A stretch of 64,000 nucleotides of DNA, taken from the NCBI GenBank assembly GCA_026396275.1, contig JAPLXC010000004.1, positions 1,193 to 65,192 on the forward strand, in the 5' to 3' direction. The position numbers and the translations under genes were made by a program. Shown here piece by piece: positions 287 through 50,857 of this stretch. Each line of letters opens with the position of its first letter. Within the stretch, counting starts at the first letter, position 1. The DNA comes from Candidatus Moraniibacteriota bacterium (GTDB taxonomy: Bacteria > Patescibacteriota > Minisyncoccia > Moranbacterales > JAPLXC01). Below the pieces are notes generated by a model, which worked only from the letters and a program-made list of their open reading frames with translations, did no database searches and was not told the origin of the DNA.

Positions 287-2209
287 ATGTCCTTGGGAGA
301 TCTAAATAAGGAACTCTATAATCCCAATTCAGATGCGGGAGAAAAAACTCATAAAAAGAGCCGATTTGACCCGGAACTTTCACCCCAGAACGATAGCCAG
401 GAATTTCAGAAAAAGGAGATGTGGATAAAAGGAAAAAAAGGACTAACTCCCGATCAGAAAAAAATAATTAAGCGAGGATTATGGGCAGTCGGCAGTATAG
501 TTCTTTTGGGTCTTCTCACCCTGGCTGTTTACGAAATCAGGAGGTCGGCTTTCAATGAGGAGAAAACGACCATAGGCCTAGAGGGGCCGACAGTTATTGA
601 CAGCACTCAGCCTGCTCAGTACATCATCCGTTATAAAAATGGTAATCGCGTTGATCTTAAAGATGCAGTGATCCGTTTGAACTACCAGGAAAATTTCCAG
701 CCGGAGGAAGCGGCAAACCTGAAAACCATAAACGCCAGCAATAGCCAGATCTACATTGGCACTATTAAGGCCCATTTCGAAGGTACAATTGAACTAAAAG
801 GGAAGTTTTACGCTCCCCAGGACTATATTGTTTATCTCCGGGCTACTCTTAGCTATACTCCTTCAAATTTCAACAGCACTTTCGAAGCCCAAAACCAGCT
901 GGGTGTCAGTGTGCAGACATCTCCTATTTTTTTGGAAATCGCCGCTCCCTTGGAAGCAGCTAGCGGAAATAGGGTGGAATATGTCATTGATTACAAAAAT
1001 CTCGGCACTCGGAATTTTTCCGATGTGCGGATTAAAGCCGAATACCCGGAAGGATTTCTGTTTTCTTCCGCGGAGCCGCAGCTGTCGGAGGGAAATAACT
1101 TCTGGTACATTGGAAAACTTGACCCCCAACAGGGGGGGAAAATAAAAATCCAGGGAACGTTACAAGGCGCGCGAAGCGAAGAGAAAAAAATAAATGTTTT
1201 CGCGGGTTCATTGAGCAGCAGCGGGCAGTTTCTTATTTACACTCAAAGTGACAAAACCACTAAAATAATCGTTTCACCTTTAAGTATAACGCAGTCAGTT
1301 AACAATCAGCGAAGTCCTTCAGTGAACGTGGGCGAAGAGCTTTACTACGTGCTAAAGTACCAAAATGAAGGCGAGATTGGACTACGGGACGTGATTATAA
1401 CCCTGGAAATCAAAAGTTTAGCGCTTAATTTTTCCAAACTTAAATTAGGAAATGGATTTTACGACCGGACTCACCAGACAATTACCTGGAAGGCCCCGGA
1501 TTTTCCTCAACTGACTAATCTGGGTCCGGGAGAAGGAGGGGAAATCAGGTTTTCCGTTCCGGTAACGAGTCAGATTCCCGTGGACAACGAAAACGACAAA
1601 AATTTTACCGTCACATCAACCGCTAAAATCGACAGCCCTGACATTCCGACTCCTCTTGGATCGAATAAGATTATCGATAGCGATACGCTTGAATTTAAAT
1701 TAAACTCCAAAGTTATCCTGGAAACCCTTGGATATTACGCTGATCCCAACATTCCTAACTCCGGACCGGTTCCCCCGCAAGTGGGGAAAGAGACAACTTA
1801 TACTATTCACTGGAAGATTACTAACGTCAATAACGATATTGCTGATACAAGGGTCGTATCTTCGCTTTCCACCGGCGTGAAGTGGACCGGAAAGATATAT
1901 CCAGAAAGTGAAAATATCGCCTTTAATGAGCGCACTAATCAAATAATTTGGGAAGTAGGAAAACTTAAAAACGGTATTGGAATTTTAAACCCCAAACGGG
2001 AAATAAGTTTTCAGGTAAGCATTATCCCCCAAATAAACCAGGCAGGACAGGAAGCGCTTCTACTTACTCCCTCGATTCTAACAGCCAAAGACCTCTTTAC
2101 TGGGGAAGAATTACGAGCTGAAACGCCAAAGAAGAACACGCTGTTACCAGAGGACGTTAGCATTGGCGGGAATTATAAGGTGGAAAATCCCGGTAATGAA
2201 CCCGGCTGA
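287..2209 (+). CDS. Membrane-anchored surface protein with about four tandem ~100-aa beta-sandwich repeats (DUF11-like conserved repeat domain)
   Basis: N-terminal TM helix (GLWAVGSIVLLGLLTLAVY). Recurring repeat pattern Y.I.YKN.G ... W.IG.L..G..G.I.F seen four times. Confidence 0.6.
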   Translation: MSLGDLNKELYNPNSDAGEKTHKKSRFDPELSPQNDSQEFQKKEMWIKGKKGLTPDQKKIIKRGLWAVGSIVLLGLLTLAVYEIRRSAFNEEKTTIGLEGPTVIDSTQPAQYIIRYKNGNRVDLKDAVIRLNYQENFQPEEAANLKTINASNSQIYIGTIKAHFEGTIELKGKFYAPQDYIVYLRATLSYTPSNFNSTFEAQNQLGVSVQTSPIFLEIAAPLEAASGNRVEYVIDYKNLGTRNFSDVRIKAEYPEGFLFSSAEPQLSEGNNFWYIGKLDPQQGGKIKIQGTLQGARSEEKKINVFAGSLSSSGQFLIYTQSDKTTKIIVSPLSITQSVNNQRSPSVNVGEELYYVLKYQNEGEIGLRDVIITLEIKSLALNFSKLKLGNGFYDRTHQTITWKAPDFPQLTNLGPGEGGEIRFSVPVTSQIPVDNENDKNFTVTSTAKIDSPDIPTPLGSNKIIDSDTLEFKLNSKVILETLGYYADPNIPNSGPVPPQVGKETTYTIHWKITNVNNDIADTRVVSSLSTGVKWTGKIYPESENIAFNERTNQIIWEVGKLKNGIGILNPKREISFQVSIIPQINQAGQEALLLTPSILTAKDLFTGEELRAETPKKNTLLPEDVSIGGNYKVENPGNEPG

Positions 2210-4747: not shown

Positions 4748-5962
4748 ATGAAATTTTCCGATATTTTCAAACTTTCAACCAGAATGTTCAAAGCGAGAAC
4801 TTCGCGCACGCTTCTTACGATTTTAGGCATGAGTATTGGAATCGGTGCTATTTTATTCCTGGTATCGCTTGGATACGGCTTGCAGAAAACCTTACTTAAT
4901 AAGATCACTACTTCCGACGCGCTGCTTACTCTGGATGTGACTGAAGCCAAATCAGCAACCGTTTTTCTTAATCGCGAGACCCTCAAAGTGATGGCAGAAA
5001 TGGAAGGGGTAGGGGAAGTAAGTCCCGCTTATCAGTTGAACGCCCAGGGACGCCTTGGCGATCTTTCAGCTGATTTTTCTGCCGTAGTGGTAAAGCCGTC
5101 ATTTCTAAAATTGGGGGGATATCGGGTAAGTCAGGGGCGCTTACTGAATGACGAAAGTCCTCAGGAAATTGTGGTTACTTCAACGGTCTCCCGCGTATTT
5201 GGGAAAAATGCGGATGAGATAATTGGAAAAGAAATAAAGTTTAGTTTTTTGGTGCCCGAGCAGGACAAAACAGGAGAAGTATCAAAAAATTCGCAAGTCA
5301 AGACAAAACGGGTGGAATCCGACAAAGCATACGTAGTAGCCGGCGTCATTGAAGGGGAGGATAGCATTATATATATCAATTCCAAGTCCCTTGATAATTT
5401 TTCCATTGATCATTTTAGCCAGGTTAAAGTGAAATGCAGAACGAATCAGGCGTTGGGGTTAGTTCGGGATCAGCTCATTAGCCAGGGATTTTTAGTATCG
5501 GCACTTTCCGATACGGTTGAGGAAGCAAACAAAGTGTTCAGGGCCATTCAGATTGTGCTAATGCTCTTTGGAGTTGTTGCTCTTGTAGTAAGCGCTATCG
5601 GGATGTTTAACACAATGACTATTGCTCTTTTGGAGCGGACGGAGGAAATCGGGATAATGAAGTCCATTGGCGCTTCCAATGCGGGAATATCTTTAATATT
5701 CGTTATGGAATCGGCTATTATGGGATTTTTGGGAGGAGTATGCGGTGTTTTTATCGGCTTTGTCAGCGGGGAGGTTTTTAATGGACTGATAAATTTTATT
5801 GCCCGGCGTTTTGGAGGAGAATCAGTGGACTTGTTCTACATTCCTTTGTGGTTCGTGCTACTTATCATTCTTTTTGCCGGTTTTGTTGGCTTTTCCACCG
5901 GGTTTATTCCGGCCAGACGGGCAAGCCACATTGATCCTCTGGAAGCTTTGAGGTATAAGTAA
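4748..5962 (+). CDS. FtsX/MacB-family ABC permease with a large extracytoplasmic domain
   Basis: One N-terminal TM, then a ~220-aa loop, then three C-terminal TMs. Translationally coupled to the ATPase (4-nt gap). Confidence 0.8.
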   Translation: MKFSDIFKLSTRMFKARTSRTLLTILGMSIGIGAILFLVSLGYGLQKTLLNKITTSDALLTLDVTEAKSATVFLNRETLKVMAEMEGVGEVSPAYQLNAQGRLGDLSADFSAVVVKPSFLKLGGYRVSQGRLLNDESPQEIVVTSTVSRVFGKNADEIIGKEIKFSFLVPEQDKTGEVSKNSQVKTKRVESDKAYVVAGVIEGEDSIIYINSKSLDNFSIDHFSQVKVKCRTNQALGLVRDQLISQGFLVSALSDTVEEANKVFRAIQIVLMLFGVVALVVSAIGMFNTMTIALLERTEEIGIMKSIGASNAGISLIFVMESAIMGFLGGVCGVFIGFVSGEVFNGLINFIARRFGGESVDLFYIPLWFVLLIILFAGFVGFSTGFIPARRASHIDPLEALRYK

Positions 5963-6937: not shown

Positions 6938-9889
6938 ATGGAAAAATACAACTCGCGGAAAATAGAGAAAAAGTGGCAGAAGAAATGGGAAGAAAGCGGA
7001 ATTTACAAGAATTACAAAAAAGACAAGAAATTCTACGCTCTTGATATGTTTCCTTATACCTCCGGCGAGGGTTTGCACGTGGGCCATCCGAGAGGATACA
7101 TCGCCACTGATGTCGTTTCCCGTTTCAAGATGCTTCAGGGAGCAAGCGTTCTTCATCCGATGGGATGGGACGCTTTTGGCTTGCCAACAGAAAATTACGC
7201 CATCGAGCATAAAATTCACCCGCGGATCGTGACCGAAAAAAATATTTCTGTTTTTAAAAAACAGCTTCAAATGTTTGGTTTTACCTATGATTGGGATCGG
7301 GAGATTAATACAACGGATCCGGGATATTACAAATGGACGCAGTGGATTTTTTTGAAAATGTTTGAAAAAGGACTGGCTTATGAGTCGAACGAGCCGATTA
7401 ACTGGTGCCCCTCCTGCAAGACAGGGCTGGCGCTGGAGGATTTGGAAAAAGGATTATGCGAACGTTGCGGAACGCAGGTAGTGCAGAAAAAAATGAGACA
7501 GTGGGTTTTAAGGATGACAAATTATGCTGATCGTCTGCTTTACGATCTGGACAGCGAAGATCTAGATTGGGAGGAGCAGATTTTAGAACAACAAAGAAAC
7601 TGGATCGGGAGAAGCGAGGGAACAGAGTTCAAGATGCCAGTTGTCATTGCGAGCGAAGCAAAGCAATCTCGTACAGAAGAATCAAATTCAGAGATTGCCG
7701 CGTCGCCTTCGGCTCCTCGCAATGACATCTATATTGAAGTTTATACCACCCGTCTGGATACGGCCTTTGGGATGACATATGCAGTAGTAGCACCGGAACA
7801 TCCAATCGTCGCTTCGCTTCTCAAAATCAAAAATCAAAAATCAAAAATCAAAAATATTGAAGAAATTAGAAATTATATAATCCGGTCACAGAATAAAACA
7901 GAGCTGGAAAGAATGGAGGCAAAGGAAAAAACAGGAATGGAAATTAAAGGAATAAAAGTTATAAATCCTTTCACTAATGAGGAAATTCCGTTATTTGTTG
8001 CCGATTATGTTTTAGGCCACTACGGCACCGGCGCAGTGATGGCTGTGCCAGCACACGATGAAAGGGACTGGGAATTTGCGAGGAAATATAATTTACCCAT
8101 AAAACAATCAATCGTTCCAAATTACAGAGAATATGAAACTACAATAAAGACCCTAAATGCACTTAGAGAAATCTATAGAGCAGCTGAAAAAAAAGACTTA
8201 AGATTTTGGCTACTTGGCGGACTAGCTTGCGCTTTTTATGCGGGAATAATTTATAGGGAACACAATGATTTAGATTTAATTACCGAAAATGAAAATGACC
8301 GTATTAAAATGTTTCAATTATTGGAAAATTTGGGATTTAAAAAAATAAAGGAGAAAAAAATATCAGAAAATCTCATCAACTTTGTTTATCAACGAGGAGA
8401 AATTGAAGTTGATATTGGACCCAATCAAGGCGAATTTGGTTTGGCTGGTGATTTTGAGGAAGATATTAAATATCTAGGAGAATACCAGTCAAGAGTATTA
8501 AGCAAACGATTTGTCAAAAGTTTTAAAGAATATCAGTTGAAGACTAGAGATGAAAAAAAAGACCAAATAGACGTGGAATATTTAAGTGGTAAAGTTTTGA
8601 TTGATGATGAAGTATTGGTTAATTCTGAAAAATATTCAGGACTAACTTCCCAAAAAGCCCGAGAGGAAATGGCAAAGTGGCTGGAGAAACAAAGAATCGG
8701 CAAGAAAAAAATAAATTACAAAATGCGTGACTGGGTGTTTTCCAGACAGCGTTACTGGGGAGAACCCATTCCCATAATTCACTGCGAGAAATGCGGTGCA
8801 GTAGGGGTGCCGGAGAAGGAATTGCCTGTTACTTTGCCGGATGTTGAAAGTTACGAGCCGACCGGGACGGGCGAATCGCCACTGGCGAATATCAAAGATT
8901 GGGTGAACACCACTTGTCCCAAATGCGGCGGACCGGGAAAAAGAGAAACCAATACTATGCCTCAATGGGCGGGCTCCTCCTGGTATTATCTTCGCTACAT
9001 TGATTCAAAAAATGAAAAGGAACTTGTTGGAAAAAAAGAAGAAAAAAAGTGGATGCCGGTGGATCTCTATGTGGGCGGGATAGAACACGCTACTCGTCAT
9101 CTTCTCTACGCACGATTCTGGCACAAGTTTTTATACGATATTGGTGTTGTTTCCACAAAAGAGCCGTTTAAAAAATTAGTTCACGTCGGGCTCATTGGCG
9201 GAGAGGACGGCAGAAAAATGTCCAAGCGCTGGGGCAATGTCGTCAGTCCTAACGACGTGATAGAACAATTCGGAGCGGACTCAATCAGATTGTATGAAAT
9301 GTTTATGGGGCCTTTCACCCAGGGTATTTCATGGAGTACGGCAGGGGTAAGTGGGATGAGGAGATTTTTGGAGAAAGTATGGAAATCGCAAAATCGAATT
9401 ATGAATTACGAATCAGGAATTAAGAATAACGTTGAAAATTTATTGCATAAGACAATCAAAAAAATAACAGAAGATATAGAAAATTTCCGATTTAATACCG
9501 CACTAAGCTCGATGATGATATATATTAATCAACTTGAGAAACAAAAGAAAATATCCATGATTCATTATTCACAATTCCTAATTCTATTGAGTCCCTTCGC
9601 CCCCCATATCGCCGAAGAGCTATGGGAGAAACTAGGACACAAAGAAAGCATATTCCGGCAGTCCTGGCCGAAGCATAATCCGCAATTGATAAAAGACGAG
9701 GAAATAGATCTGGTAATCCAAGTCAATGGAAAAGTCCGCGACACTGTTAAAGTATCAGCCGATATTTCCGAAGATGAAGCGAAAAAACTAGCCTTTGAAA
9801 ATCAAAAAGCAAAAACCTTTACAAAGGAAAAAGTAATTAAAAAGGTCATTTTTGTAAAAGGCAAGTTAATTAATATCGTAGTTTCTTAG
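6938..9889 (+). CDS. leuS: Leucyl-tRNA synthetase with an embedded ~165-aa nucleotidyltransferase-like domain and two short repeat-derived insertions
   Basis: HIGH motif (HVGHPRGY), KMSKR, and the zinc ribbon CPSCK...CERCG are present. Likely start is the second Met (MEKYNSRKIEKKW). An extra segment with W..GG...R.H.D.D motif lies between the CP1 domain and the body. Confidence 0.9.
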   Translation: MEKYNSRKIEKKWQKKWEESGIYKNYKKDKKFYALDMFPYTSGEGLHVGHPRGYIATDVVSRFKMLQGASVLHPMGWDAFGLPTENYAIEHKIHPRIVTEKNISVFKKQLQMFGFTYDWDREINTTDPGYYKWTQWIFLKMFEKGLAYESNEPINWCPSCKTGLALEDLEKGLCERCGTQVVQKKMRQWVLRMTNYADRLLYDLDSEDLDWEEQILEQQRNWIGRSEGTEFKMPVVIASEAKQSRTEESNSEIAASPSAPRNDIYIEVYTTRLDTAFGMTYAVVAPEHPIVASLLKIKNQKSKIKNIEEIRNYIIRSQNKTELERMEAKEKTGMEIKGIKVINPFTNEEIPLFVADYVLGHYGTGAVMAVPAHDERDWEFARKYNLPIKQSIVPNYREYETTIKTLNALREIYRAAEKKDLRFWLLGGLACAFYAGIIYREHNDLDLITENENDRIKMFQLLENLGFKKIKEKKISENLINFVYQRGEIEVDIGPNQGEFGLAGDFEEDIKYLGEYQSRVLSKRFVKSFKEYQLKTRDEKKDQIDVEYLSGKVLIDDEVLVNSEKYSGLTSQKAREEMAKWLEKQRIGKKKINYKMRDWVFSRQRYWGEPIPIIHCEKCGAVGVPEKELPVTLPDVESYEPTGTGESPLANIKDWVNTTCPKCGGPGKRETNTMPQWAGSSWYYLRYIDSKNEKELVGKKEEKKWMPVDLYVGGIEHATRHLLYARFWHKFLYDIGVVSTKEPFKKLVHVGLIGGEDGRKMSKRWGNVVSPNDVIEQFGADSIRLYEMFMGPFTQGISWSTAGVSGMRRFLEKVWKSQNRIMNYESGIKNNVENLLHKTIKKITEDIENFRFNTALSSMMIYINQLEKQKKISMIHYSQFLILLSPFAPHIAEELWEKLGHKESIFRQSWPKHNPQLIKDEEIDLVIQVNGKVRDTVKVSADISEDEAKKLAFENQKAKTFTKEKVIKKVIFVKGKLINIVVS
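7643..7726. mobile_element. MITE-like palindromic element family A (GTCATTGCGAGCGAAGC...CTCGCAATGAC), 84 nt, in-frame inside leuS
   Basis: Terminal inverted repeats gtcattgcgag / ctcgcaatgac. Encodes VIASEAKQS... in the leuS frame and SLRGAEGDAAIS on the opposite strand, the usual signature of this repeat family. Confidence 0.6.
7823..7855. repeat. (AAAATCA)x4 heptamer tandem repeat, in-frame in leuS
   Basis: Direct read. Encodes KIKNQKSKIKN. Same repeat occurs in rnhB and the GT4 gene at 48093. Confidence 0.7.
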
Positions 9890-13973: not shown

Positions 13974-14209
13974 TGGGCACACCAAGATTCGAACTTGGGA
14001 CCTCGTCATTATCAGCTTGCCCCGCACTAAAATTCAATCTTTGTTTATACTTTTAGTGGGCGATGGAAGACTCGAACTTCCGACCTCGTCATTATCAGTG
14101 ACGCGCTCTAACCAACTGAGCTAATCGCCCAAATACTTCTTGAATTTTTAGTGCGGGGTGAACGCTCTATGCCTGCCGGCAGGCAGGTAACCAACTGAGC
14201 TATGTGCCC
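13974..14209 (-). tRNA. Interrupted tRNA-Ile(GAT)-like gene: 5' part (14163..14209) and 3' part (13974..14019) separated by ~139 nt that contain a complete tRNA-Ile. Possible intron-containing or split tRNA, or a pseudogene
   Basis: The 5' part reads GGGCACATAGCTCAGTTGGTTA, then a 20-nt insert holding a 16-nt perfect palindrome, then GAGCG. The 3' part reads CTGATAATGACGAGGTCCCAAGTTCGAATCTTGGTGTGCCCA. Acceptor (GGGCACA/TGTGCCC) and T-stem pair perfectly. The insert is flanked by CCCCGCACTAAAA / TTTTAGTGCGGGG. The 5' strand of the anticodon stem is not cleanly recoverable. Confidence 0.4.
14057..14130 (-). tRNA. tRNA-Ile (anticodon GAT), intact, nested inside the interrupted tRNA locus
   Basis: Manual fold: acceptor GGGCGAT/ATCGCCC, D-arm GCTC-AGTTGGTTA-GAGC, anticodon arm CGTCA-CTGATAA-TGACG, T-arm GGAAG-TTCGAGT-CTTCC, discriminator A. 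No encoded CCA. Confidence 0.85.
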
Positions 14210-14216
14210 TTATCCG

Positions 14217-14289
14217 TGGACCGTGCCGGAATCGAACCGGCTGCCTCCGCAGTGCAAATGCGGCGCTCTACCAGGTGAGCTAACGGCCC
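14217..14289 (-). tRNA. tRNA-Ala (anticodon TGC)
   Basis: Manual fold: GGGCCGT-TA-GCTC-ACCTGGT-AGAGC-G-CCGCA-TTTGCAC-TGCGG-AGGCA-GCCGG-TTCGATT-CCGGC-ACGGTCC-A. Confidence 0.85.
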
Positions 14290-19878: not shown

Positions 19879-19934
19879 GTCACTCCGGGCTTGATCCGGA
19901 ATCTAATTAGATTCTGAAACAAGTTCAGAATGAC
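19879..19934. mobile_element. MITE-like palindromic element family B (GTCA[CT]TCCGG...CCGGAATCTA...GAATGAC), thyA-folA spacer
   Basis: gtcactccgggcttgatccggaatctaattagattctgaaacaagttcagaatgac. Nested hairpins. Confidence 0.55.
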
Positions 19935-26066: not shown

Positions 26067-27440
26067 TTATGATAAAATTCCCTCTAAATTCCAAATGTTA
26101 GCTTTAATAATTTTAATTTTGACAAATTTGCCAACGAGATTTTTTTGAGCGCTTTTAAATTTTACATTCTTCATTGTTCTGGTTCTGCCGAAATAAAATC
26201 CATCTTTTTGGCTGTCTATTATGACTTTAAATATTTTTCCCAAATAATTTTTATTATTCTCAAATGCCGTAATTTTCAGAATTTCATTCAAAAATTTTTC
26301 CCGCCTTTCTTTTTCTTTTTTGGAAACATTATCTTTCATCTTCCAAGCGGCGGTTCCCGGGCGGGGAGAAAATTGGCCAAAGTAAACCATATCATATTTG
26401 ACTTTTCTCATAATTTCAGCGGATTTGGCAAATTGTTTTCTGGTTTCCCCGGGAAAACCAACAATTATGTCAGAGGTTATCGCATATAAAACTCCCGGCT
26501 TGTATTTAGTAAACGCGGATTTAATTTTTTTAATCAGTCCCGGATAATGTCTGGCCGTATAGTTTCTGTTCATTCTTCTTAGTATTTCGTCGTCTCCGGC
26601 CTGGATGGGAAGATGCACATATTCACAAACTTTTTCGCATTTAGCAATTGTCTTAATCAATTCATCTGACATATCTTTCGGGTGGCTGGTTAGAAAATGA
26701 ATCCAGAAATTGCCGGAGATAGCATTTATTTTTTTAAGAAGCTTGGAAAAGTTTATTTTTCTATAATTATAAGAATTCGCGTTTTGTCCAAGTAAAATAA
26801 TTTCTTTATATCCCTTTTTCACTAAAACTCTGACTTCCTTAATAATTTCCTTTGCCGGACGGGAAATTTCCCTCCCTCGGGCATAGGGGACAACGCAATA
26901 AGAGCAAAAGTTGTTGCAGCCGGTCATGATCGGCACGAAGGCAGAATATTTTGTGTTGTATTTTGGCTCAATGTTTAGGTAATTGTCATTGCGAGGGAGC
27001 CCGTCAAAGGCGGATAAACTCCGCGACCGTGGTAATCCTGTAGATTTATCATCATTTAAATTATCTAGAGATTGCTTCCACCGCCAAGGTGAGGTCGCAA
27101 TGACAGACAAAATTTTTTCCGGGAATTCTTTTATTCCACAAAACAAATCAACTTTATCTTTTAACCTTCTCTGCACATCTTTTCTATTTGCCAAGCACCC
27201 GGTTAAAACAATAATCTTTTTTGTTCTATGTTTTGTGTTCCATGTTGTAAGATTATGTATTTGTCCATAAACCCGATCCTCTGCGCTTTGGCGCACGCCG
27301 CAGGTGTTGAAAATCACCAGATTGGCCTCATTGATATTTTTCCCTGGCTTAAATTTATGCAATTCCAAAAATGCCGCAATTCGTTCAGAATCGCTATAAT
27401 TCATCTGACAACCAAAGGTTTTAATAAAATATTTTTTCAT
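26067..27440 (-). CDS. miaB: tRNA-i6A37 methylthiotransferase (MiaB family, radical SAM)
   Basis: N-terminal MTTase domain (FGCQMN), radical SAM CNNFCSYC, TRAM C-terminus. Confidence 0.9.
   Translation of the reverse strand: MKKYFIKTFGCQMNYSDSERIAAFLELHKFKPGKNINEANLVIFNTCGVRQSAEDRVYGQIHNLTTWNTKHRTKKIIVLTGCLANRKDVQRRLKDKVDLFCGIKEFPEKILSVIATSPWRWKQSLDNLNDDKSTGLPRSRSLSAFDGLPRNDNYLNIEPKYNTKYSAFVPIMTGCNNFCSYCVVPYARGREISRPAKEIIKEVRVLVKKGYKEIILLGQNANSYNYRKINFSKLLKKINAISGNFWIHFLTSHPKDMSDELIKTIAKCEKVCEYVHLPIQAGDDEILRRMNRNYTARHYPGLIKKIKSAFTKYKPGVLYAITSDIIVGFPGETRKQFAKSAEIMRKVKYDMVYFGQFSPRPGTAAWKMKDNVSKKEKERREKFLNEILKITAFENNKNYLGKIFKVIIDSQKDGFYFGRTRTMKNVKFKSAQKNLVGKFVKIKIIKANIWNLEGILS
26985..27104. mobile_element. 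MITE-like palindromic element (family A-related, GTCATTGCGAG...GTCGCAATGAC), 120 nt in-frame in miaB
   Basis: Terminal inverted repeats. Encodes a 40-aa insert (SPWRWKQSLDNLNDDKSTGLPRSRSLSAFDGLPRNDNY) ahead of the radical-SAM cysteine motif. Confidence 0.55.
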
Positions 27441-27451
27441 TCAATTTATAT

Positions 27452-27516
27452 GTCATTCCGGACTCCAATCCGGAATCTAGTTAATTTTACTGGATTCCCG
27501 CCTGCGCGAGAATGAC
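27452..27516. mobile_element. MITE family B copy, 12 nt upstream of the miaB start codon
   Basis: gtcattccggactccaatccggaatctag...ctggattcccgcctgcgcgagaatgac. Confidence 0.55.
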
Positions 27517-32166: not shown

Positions 32167-33363
32167 ATGCCAGAAGAATTCAAAATCAAAAACGAGGATG
32201 TAATGCCTATGAAAAAAAGCAAGAAACCAGTGATAATTATTAGCACGGTTATTGTAGTGATTTTAGCGCTTGGCGCGCTGGGATATTTCGGCTGGAAATA
32301 CTATTCAGGAAAGCAAACACAGCTTAATGAGCTGAAACAGCAATTGGAAAATCTTAAGAAAGAATCGGAAAACCTGGCCGGCCAGGCAACTACGCAGGAA
32401 AATCAAGCGGGAAATGAAGGACAGAGTGAAGAAACGGCGGACGAATATGCCGGCTGGAATATTTATACCAATTCAGAAGTAGGATATCAGCTGAAATATC
32501 CGGCTGACTGGACAGTAAAAGAAACAAGCGAACATAGTGAGATTCTGGATAAGTATGTGAAATATGTGACTTTGTATACTCCTGGCAAGAAATATTTTCT
32601 TCACTGGGGGCTGAAATACAAGGGTGATAATTTTGGAGCCACCGACCGTACGGGACTGGGCGCCGGGGATTTTATAAATACCGGAAAGAAAATTGCGATT
32701 CTCGGAACAGAAGTGGATGTGGTGAAGCAGGTGTATAAAGGTGAAACCCAGGAAATGTTTTTTCCTAATGCCGGGGAAACTAAAACTTCCGACGGAAAAT
32801 ACTCTTTTGTAAATTCATTTACATATAACACAACTCACAAATCAACCGATCCGGATCTGGCCGGAATTCCGGAGGAAAAACTAGCCGAAAAAATTCTTAT
32901 ATCGGTAAAAATTATTCCGCGCACGGCCGTTCAAACCGGCTGCGCTTCAACTTTGACTGCTTCTGATAAATTGGCGATAAAAACCTGGAAAACTTATAAA
33001 AACGACAAATACGACTATTCCTTTAAGTACCCGGCCGATTGGACTTACGACAAAGTAAGCGATAAGCTTATAAATTTTGAGGGAAATGATGACGTTGTTT
33101 TTTCTTGGCGAAGCGAAGAGATGACAGCACTGGGATACGAGGGCTGGGAACTGGACACAACAAAAAATTTGAAAGTAGCCTGCCAAAGCGCGAAATCGAC
33201 TTATCTTGAACAAGGAGATGAGCGGATGATTTTCACCCAATTTAAAAAAGATAGTATCAACCATATGACCAACTTCGGTTACAAATACATCGGCGCCTCG
33301 CTTTCCAGCGACATGGTGGAGATGTATGACTTAATTTTGAAAAGTGTGGAATTTAGTGATTAG
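32167..33363 (+). CDS. Membrane-anchored hypothetical protein with a coiled-coil linker and two YxxKYPADWT repeat domains
   Basis: TM VIIISTVIVVILALGALGYFGW, then two ~120-aa repeats each containing KYPADWT. Confidence 0.5.
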   Translation: MPEEFKIKNEDVMPMKKSKKPVIIISTVIVVILALGALGYFGWKYYSGKQTQLNELKQQLENLKKESENLAGQATTQENQAGNEGQSEETADEYAGWNIYTNSEVGYQLKYPADWTVKETSEHSEILDKYVKYVTLYTPGKKYFLHWGLKYKGDNFGATDRTGLGAGDFINTGKKIAILGTEVDVVKQVYKGETQEMFFPNAGETKTSDGKYSFVNSFTYNTTHKSTDPDLAGIPEEKLAEKILISVKIIPRTAVQTGCASTLTASDKLAIKTWKTYKNDKYDYSFKYPADWTYDKVSDKLINFEGNDDVVFSWRSEEMTALGYEGWELDTTKNLKVACQSAKSTYLEQGDERMIFTQFKKDSINHMTNFGYKYIGASLSSDMVEMYDLILKSVEFSD

Positions 33364-39011: not shown

Positions 39012-39135
39012 TAATTTTTTAAATCCGAAATCCCAAGCTCAAATTTCAAATAAAATCCAAAATCCCAAATCTAAAATTTATTAATTTGGAATTGGAATTT
39101 CATTTGGCATTTGGATTTTGAACTTTGGATTTATC
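39012..39135. repeat. Long AT-rich imperfect palindrome in the nusB-rnc spacer
   Basis: aaatccaaaatcccaaatctaaaattt ... tttggaattggaatttcatttggcatttggatttt. Confidence 0.45.
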
Positions 39136-39141
39136 ATCTTT

Positions 39142-39825
39142 ATGATTGAAAATCTTTCCAAAAAGCTCGGAGTAAAGTTTAAAAATCAGGATTTGCTTCA
39201 GTCGGCGGTGACTCATCGCTCTTACCTTAATGAAAATCGTAGTTACGGAATAGAGCATAATGAACGGCTCGAGTTTCTGGGTGACGCGGTTTTGGAATTG
39301 ATTATCACTGAATACTTGTATAAAACTTACTCCAACCCTGAAGGAGAGCTAACTAGCTGGAGATCGGCTTTGGTCAATGGAGAAAATCTGGCAAAAATCG
39401 CCGGAGAGCTGGGAGTGGAAGAATTCCTACTTATGAGCAAAGGTGAAGCCAAGGATACGGGGAGAGCCCGTCAATATTTGCTGGCCAATGCTCTGGAAGC
39501 CATTATTGGAGCGATCTATCTTGACAGAGGATACCAGGAAGTCCAGCAATTTGTTTTGAAGTACATCGTGGCAAATTTAGACGAGGTATTGAAGAAAGGA
39601 CTTTATCTTGACGCGAAAAGCGTTTTTCAGGAAAAGTCCCAGGAGGAAGAAAAGATCACCCCTTCCTACCGGGTGCTAGAGGAATGGGGGCCCGACCATG
39701 ACAGGCATTTTGTGGTAGGCGTGTTTCTTGGTGAAGAGTTGATTGCCAAAGGGGAAGGAAAGTCAAAGCAGGAAGCCCAGCGGGAGGCGGCAAAAAAAGG
39801 ATTGGAAGTTAAAAGATGGATGTAG
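39142..39825 (+). CDS. rnc: Ribonuclease III
   Basis: ERLEFLGDAVLEL signature and a C-terminal dsRBD. Confidence 0.85.
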   Translation: MIENLSKKLGVKFKNQDLLQSAVTHRSYLNENRSYGIEHNERLEFLGDAVLELIITEYLYKTYSNPEGELTSWRSALVNGENLAKIAGELGVEEFLLMSKGEAKDTGRARQYLLANALEAIIGAIYLDRGYQEVQQFVLKYIVANLDEVLKKGLYLDAKSVFQEKSQEEEKITPSYRVLEEWGPDHDRHFVVGVFLGEELIAKGEGKSKQEAQREAAKKGLEVKRWM

Positions 39826-42262: not shown

Positions 42263-42362
42263 AATAAATCAAAAATTAAAATGCAAAAATCAAAATGACA
42301 ATGCAAAGTCCAAAAAGAATAATTTTCTTTTTATATTTTAATTTGTCATTCCTGCCCGCCGG
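42262..42362. repeat. AAAATCA / AAATG-CAA heptamer-family intergenic copy followed by a family-B-like half element with a 20-nt perfect palindrome CCTGCCCGCCGGCGGGCAGG
   Basis: Read directly. The palindrome resembles the D-loop insert of the interrupted tRNA. Confidence 0.45.
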
Positions 42363-42383
42363 CGGGCAGGTTGAATTATTATT

Positions 42384-46317: not shown

Positions 46318-46762
46318 AACGCAAAACTTAATACCAGGAAAAGATTGTATTGGGGTCGAAGGAGGCGTCTTGATTTTTAATAAAAAAGGCGAGGTACTTT
46401 TGATGAAACGGAGTAAAAATTCCAAGAATGAAGCTGATTGGTGGTCGAAACCCGGCGGAGCAGTGGATTTTAATGAAAAAGCAATAGATGCGATGAAAAG
46501 GGAAATAAAAGAAGAATTGAATGTTGATATAAATATCTGGGGCTATTTGCCGCATACTGATCATATTATAAGAAGAGAAAAGCAGCACTGGGTAGCTATA
46601 AATTATTTAACAAACATAAAAAAGGGGAAACTGAAAATAATGGAACCACATAAGTGTGAAGAAATCAGATGGTTTAGCATGAAAAAATTGCCAAAAAGAA
46701 TTACTCAAACTGCTAGAGAACCAATTAAGAATTATTTGGCGGGGAAATTTATCAAGTTATAG
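46307..46762 (+). CDS. NUDIX hydrolase
   Basis: NUDIX box GGAVDFNEKAIDAMKREIKEELN. Confidence 0.75.
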   Translation: MKNKTQNLIPGKDCIGVEGGVLIFNKKGEVLLMKRSKNSKNEADWWSKPGGAVDFNEKAIDAMKREIKEELNVDINIWGYLPHTDHIIRREKQHWVAINYLTNIKKGKLKIMEPHKCEEIRWFSMKKLPKRITQTAREPIKNYLAGKFIKL

Positions 46763-46766
46763 TAGT

Positions 46767-46833
46767 GTCATTCCCGCGGAAGCGGGAATCCAGTATTTAT
46801 CTTTCTGGATTCCGGCTCGGAGGCCGGAATGAC
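46767..46833. mobile_element. MITE family B copy (gtcattcccgcggaagcgggaatccag ... ggattccggctcggaggccggaatgac)
   Basis: Terminal GTCATTC/GAATGAC plus two internal hairpins. Spurious antisense ORF 46768..47085 ends in ...GFPLPRE. Confidence 0.55.
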
Positions 46834-46842
46834 ATAATTATA

Positions 46843-46880
46843 TGATTCGTATATTCGTAAGTGATTAGTAATTAGTAGCC
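46843..46880. repeat. TACGAA-family motif upstream of mreB (gattcgtatattcgtaagtgattagtaattagtag)
   Basis: Near-identical to the reverse complement of 37020..37060, upstream of dnaE. Confidence 0.5.
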
Positions 46881-47896: not shown

Positions 47897-47968
47897 TTCA
47901 TATAACATATAACATGAAACATGTAACAGAATAATTGTTTTATGTTTTATGCTTTATGCTTCATGTTG
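47897..47968. repeat. ATG-rich repeat family (CATATAACATATAACATGAAACATG ... ATGTTTTATGCTTTATGCTTCATGTTG)
   Basis: Partner copy at 50837..50893. Its 3' end supplies the annotated N-terminus (MFYALCFM) of the GT4 ORF. Confidence 0.5.
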
Positions 47969-49186
47969 ATTGGCATTGATGCTTCCCGGGCTTTTATTAA
48001 AAACCGCACGGGAATTGAGGAATATTCTTATCAAGTAATCAGAAACCTGGTCCCGCTACTTAAAGATGATCAGGTTGTTTTATATGTGAGAAAAAATCAA
48101 AAATCAAAAATCAAAAATCAAAATGTCAATGTAAAAATTAAAATTATTAAATTTCCCTTTTTATGGACTCAATTAGGTTTGTCGCTGGAAATGCTGTTTC
48201 ACCCCGTTGACGTATTGTTTATCCCGGCGCATACGGTACCGATAATCCATTCCAAAAATACAATCGTGACAATCCACGGACTGGAATATGAATTTTTCCC
48301 GCGGGCTTATTCTTTTTGGGAAAGATTATATATGCGCTGGTCGATAAGAAATTCGTGCCGGTGGGCAAAAAAAATAATCGCGGTTTCAAATAATACTAAA
48401 AAAGATTTAATGAGATTGTATAAGGTGCCGGAAGAGAAGATTGAAGTTATTTATGAAGGCTATGAGGATTGTCATTCCGGGCTTGACCCGGAATCTAGTC
48501 TAAAAAACTTAGATGCTACACTGGATTCCCGTTTTCACGGGAATGACAAATATTTATTATTCATCGGCCGATTAGAAGAACGCAAAAATATAGTTGGTAT
48601 TATTAGGGCCTTTGAGATATTAAAAAAGCAACATAAAATTCCGCACAAATTAATACTCGCCGGAAAATTCGGTTATGGTGAAGATAAAATAAAAAATTAT
48701 ATTTCCAAATCGTCTTATAAGTCCGAGATAATTACGCCTGGATATATTAGCGAAGAAGAAAAATGGGAACTTTTAAAAAATTCCGACGTATTTTTATTCC
48801 CGACTTTTTATGAAGGTTTTGGCCTGCCGATTCTTGAAGCCCAAAGCGCGGGAGTGCCGGTGGTGGCGGGTAATAATTCGTCAATACTGGAGATCACTAC
48901 AGTATCTGCCTCCCCTCAGATGAGGGGAGGAAATGAAGGAGGGGAGTTGAAAAAAACATATGATCAGCCCCTCACTCTTAATCCCTCTCCCCATTTGGGG
49001 CGAGGGGGAGTAGAGTCCACACTTTTAGTGAATCCTCATAACCCCGAAAAAATTGCCGAAGCAGCCTATAAGCTTATTTCTAACAAGGCCTTGAGAGATG
49101 ATATAATACAAAGAGGCTATGAGAATGTGAAGAGGTTTGGGTGGGGAAAGTGCGCTGATCAAATTGCTAAATTATTAACAAAATAA
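47963..49186 (+). CDS. Glycosyltransferase family 1 (GT4), carrying three in-frame repeat or MITE insertions
   Basis: EGFGLPILEAQSAGVPVVAG. Start is probably the internal Met (MLIGID), since the upstream codons come from a repeat. Confidence 0.8.
   Translation: MLIGIDASRAFIKNRTGIEEYSYQVIRNLVPLLKDDQVVLYVRKNQKSKIKNQNVNVKIKIIKFPFLWTQLGLSLEMLFHPVDVLFIPAHTVPIIHSKNTIVTIHGLEYEFFPRAYSFWERLYMRWSIRNSCRWAKKIIAVSNNTKKDLMRLYKVPEEKIEVIYEGYEDCHSGLDPESSLKNLDATLDSRFHGNDKYLLFIGRLEERKNIVGIIRAFEILKKQHKIPHKLILAGKFGYGEDKIKNYISKSSYKSEIITPGYISEEEKWELLKNSDVFLFPTFYEGFGLPILEAQSAGVPVVAGNNSSILEITTVSASPQMRGGNEGGELKKTYDQPLTLNPSPHLGRGGVESTLLVNPHNPEKIAEAAYKLISNKALRDDIIQRGYENVKRFGWGKCADQIAKLLTK
48093..48150. repeat. (AAAATCA)x4 plus an ATGTCAA-like heptamer repeat in-frame in GT4
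   Basis: Encodes KNQKSKIKNQNVNVKIKI. Confidence 0.7.
48471..48547. mobile_element. MITE family B copy inserted in-frame in GT4 (encodes CHSGLDPESSLKNLDATLDSRFHGNDK)
   Basis: gtcattccgggcttgacccggaatctag ... ctggattcccgttttcacgggaatgac. Confidence 0.55.
48903..49015. mobile_element. GC-rich multi-hairpin palindromic insertion in-frame in GT4 (cctcccctcagatgaggggagg ... ccctctccccatttggggcgaggggg)
   Basis: Local GC spike. Encodes SASPQMRGGNEGGELKKTYDQPLTLNPSPHLGRGGVES, interrupting the GT-B C-terminal domain. Confidence 0.5.
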
Positions 49187-49642: not shown

Positions 49643-50857
49643 ATGCAAAAAAGTCAAGCCCGTAAAGATGCTTCGCATCCATGGGCCAAGGAATTAAAAG
49701 TAGCTCTTATTCACGATTTTCTCCTTTACCCTGGCGGGGCGGAGAGGGTTTTGGAAGTGCTCGCGGAGATGTTTCCGGAAGCGCCTATTTATACGTTACT
49801 TTATGATCCGGAAAAAATGAGGGGGAAGTTTTCCGGTAAGGACATTCGCGTTTCATATCTCCAGAAATTTCCTAAGTTTTTACGCAAACGCTACCAGTGG
49901 CTTCTGCCGCTTTTCCTGGTTGTTCCGGAAACGTTCGATCTTCGCGATTTTGATCTGGTAATATCGTCTTCCGGCGCCTGGTCAAAAGGAATTGTTACCA
50001 AGCTCAATACCATTCATATCGCCTACATTCACTCGCCGATGCGCTTTGTGTGGGACTATAACGAGCGGTACCTAAAAGAACAAGGACAAAAGAAAATCTG
50101 CTTATTAAAAAGGTTTATTTTAAGCTACGCCCGCCTCTGGGATCGCCTGGCAGCCGACCGGCCGGATTATTTGATCGCTAATTCGAAGTACACACAGGAA
50201 AGGATAAAAAAATATTACCGGCGTGAAAGCACGGTTATTTACCCGCCGGCATATATTGATGTCGTTGCGAGAAGCGAAGCGGCGCGGCAATCTCGTTCAA
50301 ATAAGGATAGTGTTATTACTCCGGGGTCCCTCGATTTTGCTCGGGACGAAGAGAAATTCTTTCTCGTCGTTTCCCGTCTCTCTCCCTACAAAAAAGTTGA
50401 CGTTGCGGTCGAGGCCTTCAATAAACTAGAACTGCCTTTAGTTGTTATTGGAGAAGGGAAGCAGGAAAAGTACCTGAAGCTAATCGCTCGAGGAAATATT
50501 CAGATACTGGGCTGGCAGAATGATGAAACAGTAGAGCGTTATTATTCAGGTGCCCGGGCTTTTATATTTCCCGCCGAAGACGACTTTGGCATTACGATGG
50601 TTGAAGCAATGAGTCATGGTATTCCAGTAATTGCCTATGGCAAGGGCGGGGCAATAGAGATAGTTCAAGAGGCAGTTACCGGAGAGTTTTTTCATGCCCA
50701 AACGCCGGAAGTTCTGGCTGACGGAGTGAGAAGATTTATGGAGAAGGAAAAAAAATATGATAAGGAAAAGATAAGAAAAAAAGCGGAGGAATTCAGTAAG
50801 GAGAAATTTAAGAAAGAGTTCAGGGAGTTTGTAAATCATATAACATATAACGTATAA
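49643..50857 (+). CDS. Glycosyltransferase family 1 (GT4) with an in-frame MITE family A insertion
   Basis: FPAEDDFGITMVEAMSHGIPVIAYGKGG. Confidence 0.8.
   Translation: MQKSQARKDASHPWAKELKVALIHDFLLYPGGAERVLEVLAEMFPEAPIYTLLYDPEKMRGKFSGKDIRVSYLQKFPKFLRKRYQWLLPLFLVVPETFDLRDFDLVISSSGAWSKGIVTKLNTIHIAYIHSPMRFVWDYNERYLKEQGQKKICLLKRFILSYARLWDRLAADRPDYLIANSKYTQERIKKYYRRESTVIYPPAYIDVVARSEAARQSRSNKDSVITPGSLDFARDEEKFFLVVSRLSPYKKVDVAVEAFNKLELPLVVIGEGKQEKYLKLIARGNIQILGWQNDETVERYYSGARAFIFPAEDDFGITMVEAMSHGIPVIAYGKGGAIEIVQEAVTGEFFHAQTPEVLADGVRRFMEKEKKYDKEKIRKKAEEFSKEKFKKEFREFVNHITYNV
50261..50375. mobile_element. MITE family A copy (gtcgttgcgagaagcgaagcggcgcggcaatctcg ...) in-frame in the second GT4
   Basis: Encodes VVARSEAARQSRSNKD. 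Antisense frame reads SLREAKRRGNL. Right boundary approximate. Confidence 0.5.

Follow-up and report, generated by a model that had tools for sequence, protein, structure and literature searches.

A 64,000-nucleotide stretch of the metagenome-assembled genome of a Candidatus Moranbacteria bacterium (Patescibacteria, also termed the candidate phyla radiation (CPR); contig JAPLXC010000004.1, positions 1,193 to 65,192; GC content 41%), here called the window, carries scattered copies of a short palindromic repeat, one of them in frame within a gene for a GT4-family glycosyltransferase. By its sequence, this repeat is the published CGTC-tagged repetitive extragenic palindrome (REP), known in Neisseria as dRS3 or NTS, in Rickettsia as RPE-6 and more generally as the Ssn-related motif (SRM). 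The family itself is known, and what is new is its presence in Patescibacteria and Moranbacteria, a phylum that is unnamed in both source papers (PMC3733652, PMC11893778). The copies are probably best explained as tag-outward dimers of the CGTC-REP/NTS/SRM unit that would serve as targets of an Ssn-type nuclease in single-stranded DNA (ssDNA), with the coding copy tolerated in an interdomain linker. An initial annotation of the window, made from the letters alone, had announced a new family of transposable elements of the miniature inverted-repeat type (MITEs), a call that is corrected here: the repeat already bears a name, is pan-bacterial and has a protein partner that is known.

Identity of the repeat

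CGTC-tagged REPs carry a CGTC tag, often replaced by TGTC, and include the families CGTC-1 and CGTC-2 (PMC3733652, Di Nocera, De Gregorio and Rocco 2013, BMC Genomics 14:522). Their stems are 8-9 bp long with A-T and T-A as first pairs, the loops measure 4 nt in CGTC-1 and 5 nt in CGTC-2 to -4, and the unpaired tail has the consensus CCA. They are mostly organised as head-head dimers, with the tags outside, and heterodimers and occasional intragenic in-frame copies also occur; according to the supplement of that paper, intragenic CGTC-1 dimers of R. conorii encode SFLRKQES...LDSRFRGND and single units encode VIPAKAGI. CGTC-1 was equated with Neisseria dRS3 and Rickettsia RPE-6, and the repeats were reported in five phyla, with no dedicated transposase and no RAYT flanked by CGTC units. 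The Neisseria unit was later redefined as NTS, CGTCATTCCCGCGMAVGCGGGAATCYRG (PMC11893778, Nat Commun 2025;16:2388), and the single-stranded repeat is bound and cut by the GIY-YIG nuclease Ssn in Neisseria and Wolbachia. SsnA is a 94-aa single-domain GIY-YIG protein (cd10448) that binds and cuts NTS as ssDNA only, the RNA form being left unbound; binding depends critically on the C that follows the palindrome and cutting on the three bases that precede it, while the loop is dispensable. The ssn genes are often flanked by repeats, and the degenerate SRM search pattern, HGTCWYN(0-2)YYVSBRHN(0-5)WNVSBRGN(0-2)RNCYNB, recovers relatives from Rhizorhabdus, Wolbachia and Rickettsia, among others (PMC11893778).

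The copies in the window resemble CGTC-REPs in their TGTC/CGTC tag, in an 8-bp stem that starts with A-T and T-A, in the 4- or 5-nt loops of six of the eight arms, in a CCA-type tail, in their arrangement as head-head dimers and in the occurrence of heterodimers and of an intragenic in-frame copy, but differ in the 6-nt loops of two arms and in their host, since Patescibacteria and Moranbacteria are not among the five phyla of the earlier survey (PMC3733652). The unit also has the same orientation as NTS/SRM, and the positions conserved in orthologous copies, described below, are those that Ssn needs for binding and cutting. Three window arms match the NTS consensus CGTCATTCCCGCGMAVGCGGGAATCYRG with two or three mismatches. 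The SRM pattern has three matches in the window compared with 0.04 expected from 100 shuffles; two of these are element arms, and the arms with loops of 5 or 6 nt are not matched. The third match (TGTCTCTTTCCCCACTTGCGGGGGAACCGG, 1766-1795, minus strand) lies inside a DUF11 open reading frame (ORF; 287..2209) and may be a different hairpin class or a chance match. Unlike NTS, which cluster around particular genes, the copies in the window are dimers scattered among housekeeping genes. A literature search on palindromes of the CPR, and by sequence strings, returned nothing useful.

A permissive Rfam search of the window gave a single hit, a sub-threshold match to RF02625 (WsnRNA46, Wolbachia small RNA 46) at 46746-46853 (28 bits, E 4e-4). 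The consensus of RF02625 is itself a tag-outward dimer of a related unit (GUGUCAU...CCAG / CUGGAU...AUGACAC), which suggests that a CGTC/SRM repeat gave rise to this reported Wolbachia small RNA. The window element itself falls outside RF02625, the score being well short of the gathering threshold of 65.3 bits and the Wolbachia stems being longer and different.

Anatomy of the copies in the window

Three copies are canonical (27452-27516, 46767-46833 and 48471-48547), a fourth is degenerate (19879-19934), and a variant at 42345-42375 consists of a single hairpin. All four copies of the initial annotation are real and lie where it had placed them, although that at 19879 proves to be degenerate, and its 'partial copy' at 42338..42362 does hold a hairpin, which is really a single tagged-hairpin variant at 42345-42375. 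Each copy is built of two inverted arms (units of 27-29 nt) around a spacer of 0-22 nt, with the GTC tags facing outward. Read 5' to 3', an arm consists of a T-GTC tag, the stem strand ATTCC-nnn, a loop of 4-6 nt, the stem strand nnn-GGAAT and the tail C(C/T)AG, the stem being 8 bp long. The nested CCGG...CCGG and GGAATC...GATTCC hairpins described previously are instead two separate inverted arms, ATTCC-nnn-loop-nnn-GGAAT, with TGTC outside.

The TGTC tag is found on 8/8 arms of the four copies and lies outside in 4/4 copies; perfect 8-bp stems (ATTCnnnn/nnnnGAAT) occur in seven arms, the left arm of the 19879 copy having one mismatch. Loop length is 4 nt in three of the eight arms (GGAA, GAAA, GCAG), 5 nt in another three (CTTGA twice, CTTGT) and 6 nt in the remaining two (CTCCAA, CTCCGA), and the tails are CCAG (four arms), CTAG (two) and CTAA (two). 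When folded as single strands, the copies give z-scores of -3.4 to -5.7 as DNA and of -4.5 to -5.2 as RNA. The motif GTCATTCC occurs seven times in the window against 1.75 expected (0/100 shuffles reach seven), the unit pattern GTCATTCC-N8-14-GGAATCYAG five times against 0.00 expected, and a covariance model of the unit (R1) finds exactly six window units, the arms of the dimers at 27452, 46767 and 48471, at E <= 1.3e-4. A chance origin of the window copies is excluded. A generic window scan for a GTC tag followed by an AT-stem hairpin was too noisy to be of use (25 matches compared with 18.5 in shuffles).

The copy within the glycosyltransferase gene reads GTCATTCC-GGGCTTGACCC-GGAATCTAG-(22 nt)-CTGGATTCC-CGTTTTCACG-GGAATGAC. 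Its left unit (48471..48498, plus strand) has a (T)GTC tag, the stem ATTCCGGG/CCCGGAAT, the loop CTTGA and the tail CTAG, and is confirmed as a hairpin (R1 22.4 bits, E 7e-5); the 22-nt spacer (48499..48520) encodes part of SLKNLDAT, and the right unit TGTCATTCCCGTGAAAACGGGAATCCAG (48521..48547, minus strand) scores 47.2 bits (E 3e-13), matches the SRM pattern and agrees with the NTS consensus with three mismatches. In the copy between the nudix gene and mreB, the left unit TGTCATTCCCGCGGAAGCGGGAATCCAG (46767..46793, plus strand; R1 47.2 bits, E 3e-13) agrees with the NTS consensus with two mismatches, and the right unit (46805..46833, minus strand; R1 33.5 bits, E 1e-8) has the 6-nt loop CTCCGA. 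The copy beside miaB comprises a left unit with the 6-nt loop CTCCAA (27452..27480, plus strand; R1 21.7 bits, E 1.3e-4), which begins 11 nt from the miaB ATG, and the right unit TGTCATTCTCGCGCAGGCGGGAATCCAG (27490..27516, minus strand; R1 35.3 bits, E 3e-9), which matches both the SRM pattern and, with two mismatches, the NTS consensus. The degenerate dimer in the thyA-folA spacer (19879..19934; GTCACTCC.../...AGAATGAC) has the left arm GTCACTCC-GGGCTTGATCC-GGAATCTAA, the right arm TGTC-ATTCTGAA-cttgt-TTCAGAAT-CTAA on the minus strand and no spacer, and is placed 4 nt past the thyA stop and 13 nt ahead of the folA start. The single tagged hairpin in the amidohydrolase-murD spacer (42345..42375, plus strand), TGTCATTCC-TGCCCGCCGGCGGGCAGG-TTGAAT, has TGTC, ATTCC and a longer, 8-bp GC stem.

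Distribution across bacteria and conserved structure

An exact scan with the pattern GTCATTCC-N8-14-GGAATCYAG-N0-30-CTGGATTCC, in one genome per species, matched at least 120 loci elsewhere. The dispersed palindromic repeat family of the initial annotation is real, and a lack of further copies elsewhere, which would have told against it, is not what the scan found. The matches listed come from more than 15 phyla and from four Patescibacteria, including another Moranbacteria genome, and their hosts include Alpha-, Beta-, Gamma- and Deltaproteobacteria, Nitrospirae, Planctomycetes, Dehalococcoidia, Armatimonadota, Omnitrophota, Aminicenantes, Gemmatimonas and Verrucomicrobia. The known range of the family thereby grows to take in Patescibacteria and far more phyla than the five reported previously (PMC3733652) or the four of the SRM seed set (PMC11893778). 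Many of the listed loci sit at contig ends, as would be expected of assembly-breaking repeats. Viral contigs contributed only 11 matching stretches and phages are therefore no obvious vehicle. Two plasmid-labelled records of Neisseria gonorrhoeae (NZ_CP119140.1 and NZ_CP119142.1), which at 2.17 Mb are chromosome-sized, hold 21-22 dimer matches.

Among the matches listed, 82 full dimers measure 64-85 nt with lengths modulo 3 that are evenly spread (28/28/26), and 10/82 (approximately 12%) lie within long open frames. The tag, ATTCC and GGAATCYAG are fixed by the scan pattern, and free evidence can come only from the loop and the three inner pairs of the stem. GTC is preceded by T in 121 and by C in 107 of 237 listed arms from other genomes. 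Among the 189 arms whose insert is 10 nt long, pairing at each of the three free stem positions holds in 96-99%, with C-G, T-A and G-C alternatives, and the loop has a clear orientation, its first base being G in 181/189 and its third base A in 181/189, with the reverse loop TTTC seen once; a second class of arms has the 5-nt loop CTTGA. Across 56 distinct units, the proportion of paired cells is 97.3%, and 33 cells have changed on both sides compared with 7.3 in shuffles (0/500 reach this value), pairing falls to 14.5%-54.5% when the 3' partner is shifted by one to three columns, and G-U pairs are rare (8/448 cells). The variable stem pairs covary, and it is therefore the folded single strand that is conserved; together with the asymmetry of the loop, the covariation of the free pairs indicates that the unit is a strand-specific hairpin, of which the dimer presents one per strand.

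At the flanks of 88 dimers, direct repeats 2-8 nt long were no commoner than in permutations, giving no sign of target-site duplication, and the only flanking preference was for Y-Y before GTC and R-R after GAC, which extends the palindrome. Clustering of 2231 ORFs from 120 listed loci found no recurrent gene family beside the elements.

The in-frame copy in the glycosyltransferase gene

The initial annotation had placed one copy in frame in a GT4 gene, and this is borne out: 48471-48547 lies within the ORF 47942..49186 (plus strand), encodes CHSGLDPESSLKNLDATLDSRFHGNDK and corresponds to approximately aa 177-203 of a protein in which Glyco_transf_4 ends at aa 174 and Glycos_transf_1 starts at aa 198. 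In an AlphaFold2 prediction (mean pLDDT 81.8), values fall below 50 in two segments, aa 174-194 and aa 327-355, with flanking domains at 85-98. By this model the interdomain linker that holds the copy is predicted to be disordered, and the copy itself is an in-frame insertion of the RPE type. It resembles Rickettsia RPE-6 (= CGTC-1) and RPE-4 (= CGTC-4) as an in-frame palindrome in a conserved protein, and ...LDSRFRGND of R. conorii compares with LDSRFHGNDK here; phylum and lifestyle differ, and the GT4 linker, unlike the Rickettsia sites, is a hot spot for different repeat families among orthologues.

Insert-free GT4 orthologues are approximately 353-365 aa long, with length variation concentrated at few sites, two of which, the interdomain linker and a C-terminal loop, are occupied in the window protein. 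A comparison of orthologues, which the initial annotation had proposed as a check, found the element at the linker site, at a second site or absent. Since these copies were found via protein homology, they are independent of the DNA pattern used for the scan. In the ortholog alignment the dimer occupies the linker in the window protein and in P0002, P0003 and P0005, with one arm only in P0004, and it occupies the C-terminal site, in the same reading frame, in P0011 and P0046. By locus, the linker-site element is found in L121, L122, L138 and L140, and an element at another site in L139 and in P0046. The remaining orthologues have peptides of other repeat families at the linker or C-terminal sites, or none.

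Within the left arm, TGTCATTCC and GGAATC are identical in 5/5 lineages with the linker copy, and within the right arm GATTCC and GGAATGACA are identical in 3/5; these conserved positions coincide with those reported to be needed by Ssn for binding and cutting. The inner stems differ by compensatory pairs (GGG/CCC vs GGA/TCC, which is synonymous, and CGT/ACG vs CGC/GCG), and the loops vary too. In the rest of the gene, third-codon identity at conserved four-fold residues is 0.44-0.49, whereas the aligned element is 80-84% identical. The core is identical despite near-saturated synonymous sites, and a nucleic-acid signal therefore appears to have been maintained, through selection, gene conversion or re-insertion; the sequence comparison suggests that the repeat in the GT4 linker is not simply decaying. 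The linker is in this respect a small natural experiment, in which five lineages keep the Ssn-critical nucleotides amid near-saturated synonymous sites. In a crude neighbour-joining tree (no support values) the element-bearing orthologues are scattered over three groups, a pattern compatible both with one ancient insertion followed by losses and with repeated insertion. The spacers of the window copy and of the L122 copy have the same length and share 14/22 bases, suggesting common descent for at least these two.

A further in-frame insertion is present in the same gene at 48905-49010, with C-rich/G-rich hairpins CCTCCCCTCAGATGAGGGGAGG and CCCTCTCCCCATTTGGGGCGAGGGGGA and the encoded peptide SPQMRGGNEGGELKKTYDQPLTLNPSPHLGRGG; it corresponds to the low-confidence segment at aa 327-355 (pLDDT <50), and orthologues have variants or nothing there. 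The linker and the C-terminal loop are hot spots for peptides of at least four repeat families: VIASEAKQS..LPRNDR, PLPxGEGxxxGEG, SFRAxPERAKRVEG and PFAKGGLKGDF. Annotators should treat CHSGLDPES, LDSRFxGND, VIPAKAGIQ and similar peptides as loops encoded by repeats and not as protein motifs.

Proposed function and alternative explanations

From the properties of Ssn (PMC11893778), a mechanism can be proposed in which each arm would fold when DNA becomes single-stranded during uptake, replication or repair. A small nuclease of the Ssn family (cd10448), with a single GIY-YIG domain, would bind the folded arm via the stem and the following C and nick it beside the GTC tag, the dimer offering one correctly oriented site per strand. 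The repeats would then modulate ssDNA recombination, and may have spread as satellites of an NTS-ssn-NTS unit. We infer that an Ssn-type nuclease may act on the copies in this organism and be related to their spread or maintenance. The coding copy would survive because two of three frames per arm are open and the linker tolerates approximately 26 extra residues.

Several observations weigh against this explanation. No GIY-YIG or ssn gene was found among the 54 ORFs of the 64-kb window by Pfam or, among its small ORFs, by inspection, and the link to Ssn, carried over from Proteobacteria, is putative for this organism. The two 6-nt loops go beyond the published description of CGTC-REPs, and the 19879 copy was not recovered by the covariance model R1. 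All four window copies differ from one another, and there is therefore no sign of recent movement in this genome. In addition, the conservation of the GT4 core could reflect gene conversion or repeated insertion, and the copies fold as strongly in RNA as in DNA, so that a role in RNA is possible.

The search for ssn was extended by a six-frame phmmer search of L001-L134 and the window, which gave no significant GIY-YIG match, a weak negative since the four queries were not verified Ssn proteins. No NTS-ssn-NTS unit was seen in any locus examined, in contrast to the repeat-flanked ssn genes of the published system. A tblastn search of plasmids for SsnA used E. coli YhbQ as query, in an approximate sequence that is 98.7% identical to the real protein. 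It returned a GIY-YIG gene of Neisseria gonorrhoeae that has no NTS within 1.2 kb on either side and is probably the YhbQ-type paralogue, and a GIY-YIG gene of Sphingomonas (L136, 1340-1500); neither is a confirmed Ssn. The Sphingomonas gene lies just downstream of a long palindrome of another kind, GGGCTTCGACTTCGCTCAGCCTGAACGG...CCGTTCAGGCTGAGCGAAGTCGAAGCCC, and has a C-terminus, ALRLRSGRTRE, that looks repeat-encoded; gene and palindrome could be a further pair of Ssn and hairpin.

An action at the level of RNA, in which the co-transcribed dimer would form an mRNA stem-loop acting as a barrier to 3'-exonucleases, an RNase III site, a modulator of miaB translation or a small RNA, appears unlikely as the principal explanation, although an RNA role is compatible with the proposed ssDNA function and does not exclude it. 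Besides the strength of the RNA folds, it can draw on the placement of the three intergenic copies in short gene-adjoining spacers, two of them between co-directional genes, on the WsnRNA46 match of the 46767 copy, and on the presence of an RNase III gene in the window (39118..39825). Set against these are the lack of a T-run after any copy, a Rfam score far below gathering, the rarity of G-U pairs, the failure of Ssn to bind the RNA form (PMC11893778), and the finding of the core in every genomic context across phyla, long open frames included. Mobilisation as REPINs, by a RAYT or IS200-type Y1 (HUH) transposase acting on ssDNA hairpins, would account for the inverted hairpin doublets, the strand-specific 5' tag, the lack of target-site duplication and the inferred ssDNA intermediate, all of which are shared with GTAG REPs. 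Nevertheless, the tag is YGTC and not GT[AG]G, no association with RAYT is known (PMC3733652) or was seen, there is no Y1_Tnp domain in the window, and the 120 listed loci have no recurrent neighbouring gene family, so that this route is improbable.

The classical MITE, a deletion derivative of an insertion sequence moved by a DDE transposase on terminal inverted repeats of 8-9 bp, is less probable still and largely refuted. It is true that the termini TGTCATTCC/GGAATGACA are conserved and that relatives differ in which copies they have, but the 88 dimers have no 2-8-bp target-site duplication, solitary arms exist, the inner stems covary, which would be needless for an enzyme binding terminal repeats in double-stranded DNA, and sequence conservation spans more than 15 phyla among the matches listed. 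With a unit that is a tagged hairpin, no transposase in the window and a family already described (PMC3733652, PMC11893778), the MITE label of the initial annotation is only loosely right. A conserved protein motif of GT4 enzymes is refuted and has next to no probability: the peptide CHSGLDPES...LDSRxxGND does recur in several GT4 orthologues, but 3/4 copies are intergenic, dimer lengths show no preference modulo 3, most orthologues have no such peptide or have other repeat peptides, the segment is predicted to be disordered, and synonymous positions of the core are conserved.

Beyond the proposed ssDNA target, a broader reading is that the repeats of Patescibacteria might be under nucleotide-level purifying selection, even in coding sequence, as sites of an Ssn-type nuclease that polices incoming ssDNA or copies the hairpins; this is speculative and on balance doubtful. 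If the nuclease did copy hairpins, NTS-ssn-NTS would represent a class of mobile element driven by a GIY-YIG enzyme, and the small genomes of the CPR would be the simplest place to find the long-missing enzyme that spreads CGTC repeats.

Genomic setting of the intergenic copies

The 54 window ORFs of at least 80 aa, scanned with Pfam, are housekeeping in character (LeuRS, thyA, folA, miaA, miaB, ThrRS, DnaE, murA, murD, mreB, two GT4 genes and others), and no transposase, Y1/HUH (Y1_Tnp), IS110 or GIY-YIG domain was found among them. At gathering thresholds, Rfam recognises two tRNAs only in the window. These, tRNA-Ile(GAT) and tRNA-Ala(TGC), are adjacent on the minus strand at 14056-14289 and are the usual pair of the 16S-23S spacer, yet the window has no rRNA gene.

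A copy abutting the miaB start, as claimed initially, is found at 27452-27516, 11 nt upstream of the ATG of miaB (minus strand, 26067..27440). The accompanying idea that it might provide or disrupt the miaB promoter finds no support, given that the sole minus-strand promoter-like site using the element (ATGACA, 17 nt, AATATT; 27456->27428) has its -10 inside the ORF; the next minus-strand candidate lies approximately 230 nt upstream. If transcribed, the element would be a 5'-untranslated-region hairpin ending 11 nt before the AUG, and any effect of it is speculative.

The copy at 46767-46833 occupies the nudix-mreB spacer, within a murA-nudix-mreB-GT4-GT4 region that is syntenic in relatives. 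It is absent from the syntenic L121 (spacer of 44 nt) and L123 (spacer of 4 nt), and the 42345 hairpin is absent from the corresponding spacer of L123. The HD-mreB spacer of L122 has a single arm, TTAGATCCTGAAAACGTGTTCAGGATGACA (4895-4930), which is close to the right arm of the 19879 copy, and these two arms may form a separate subfamily, ATYCTGAA/TTCAGRAT.

Related palindromes

The TGTCAT tag recurs in a second family of palindromes, TGTCATTGCGAG...CTCGCAATGACA, at 7643-7726, 26985-27104 and approximately 50200-50300, which is probably a further class of SRM type. Two of these palindromes are in frame, one in LeuRS (VIASEAKQSRTEESNSEIAASPSAPRNDI) and one in MiaB, where it is placed between the UPF0004 and Radical_SAM domains; a degenerate one is present in the second GT4 gene (VVARSEAARQSRS...DFARDEE). 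Outside the window, a dimer of the first family at 32500-32577 of a Sphingopyxis indica replicon (NZ_CP076395.1) is covered by the ileS annotation and is another candidate in-frame insertion in an aminoacyl-tRNA synthetase.

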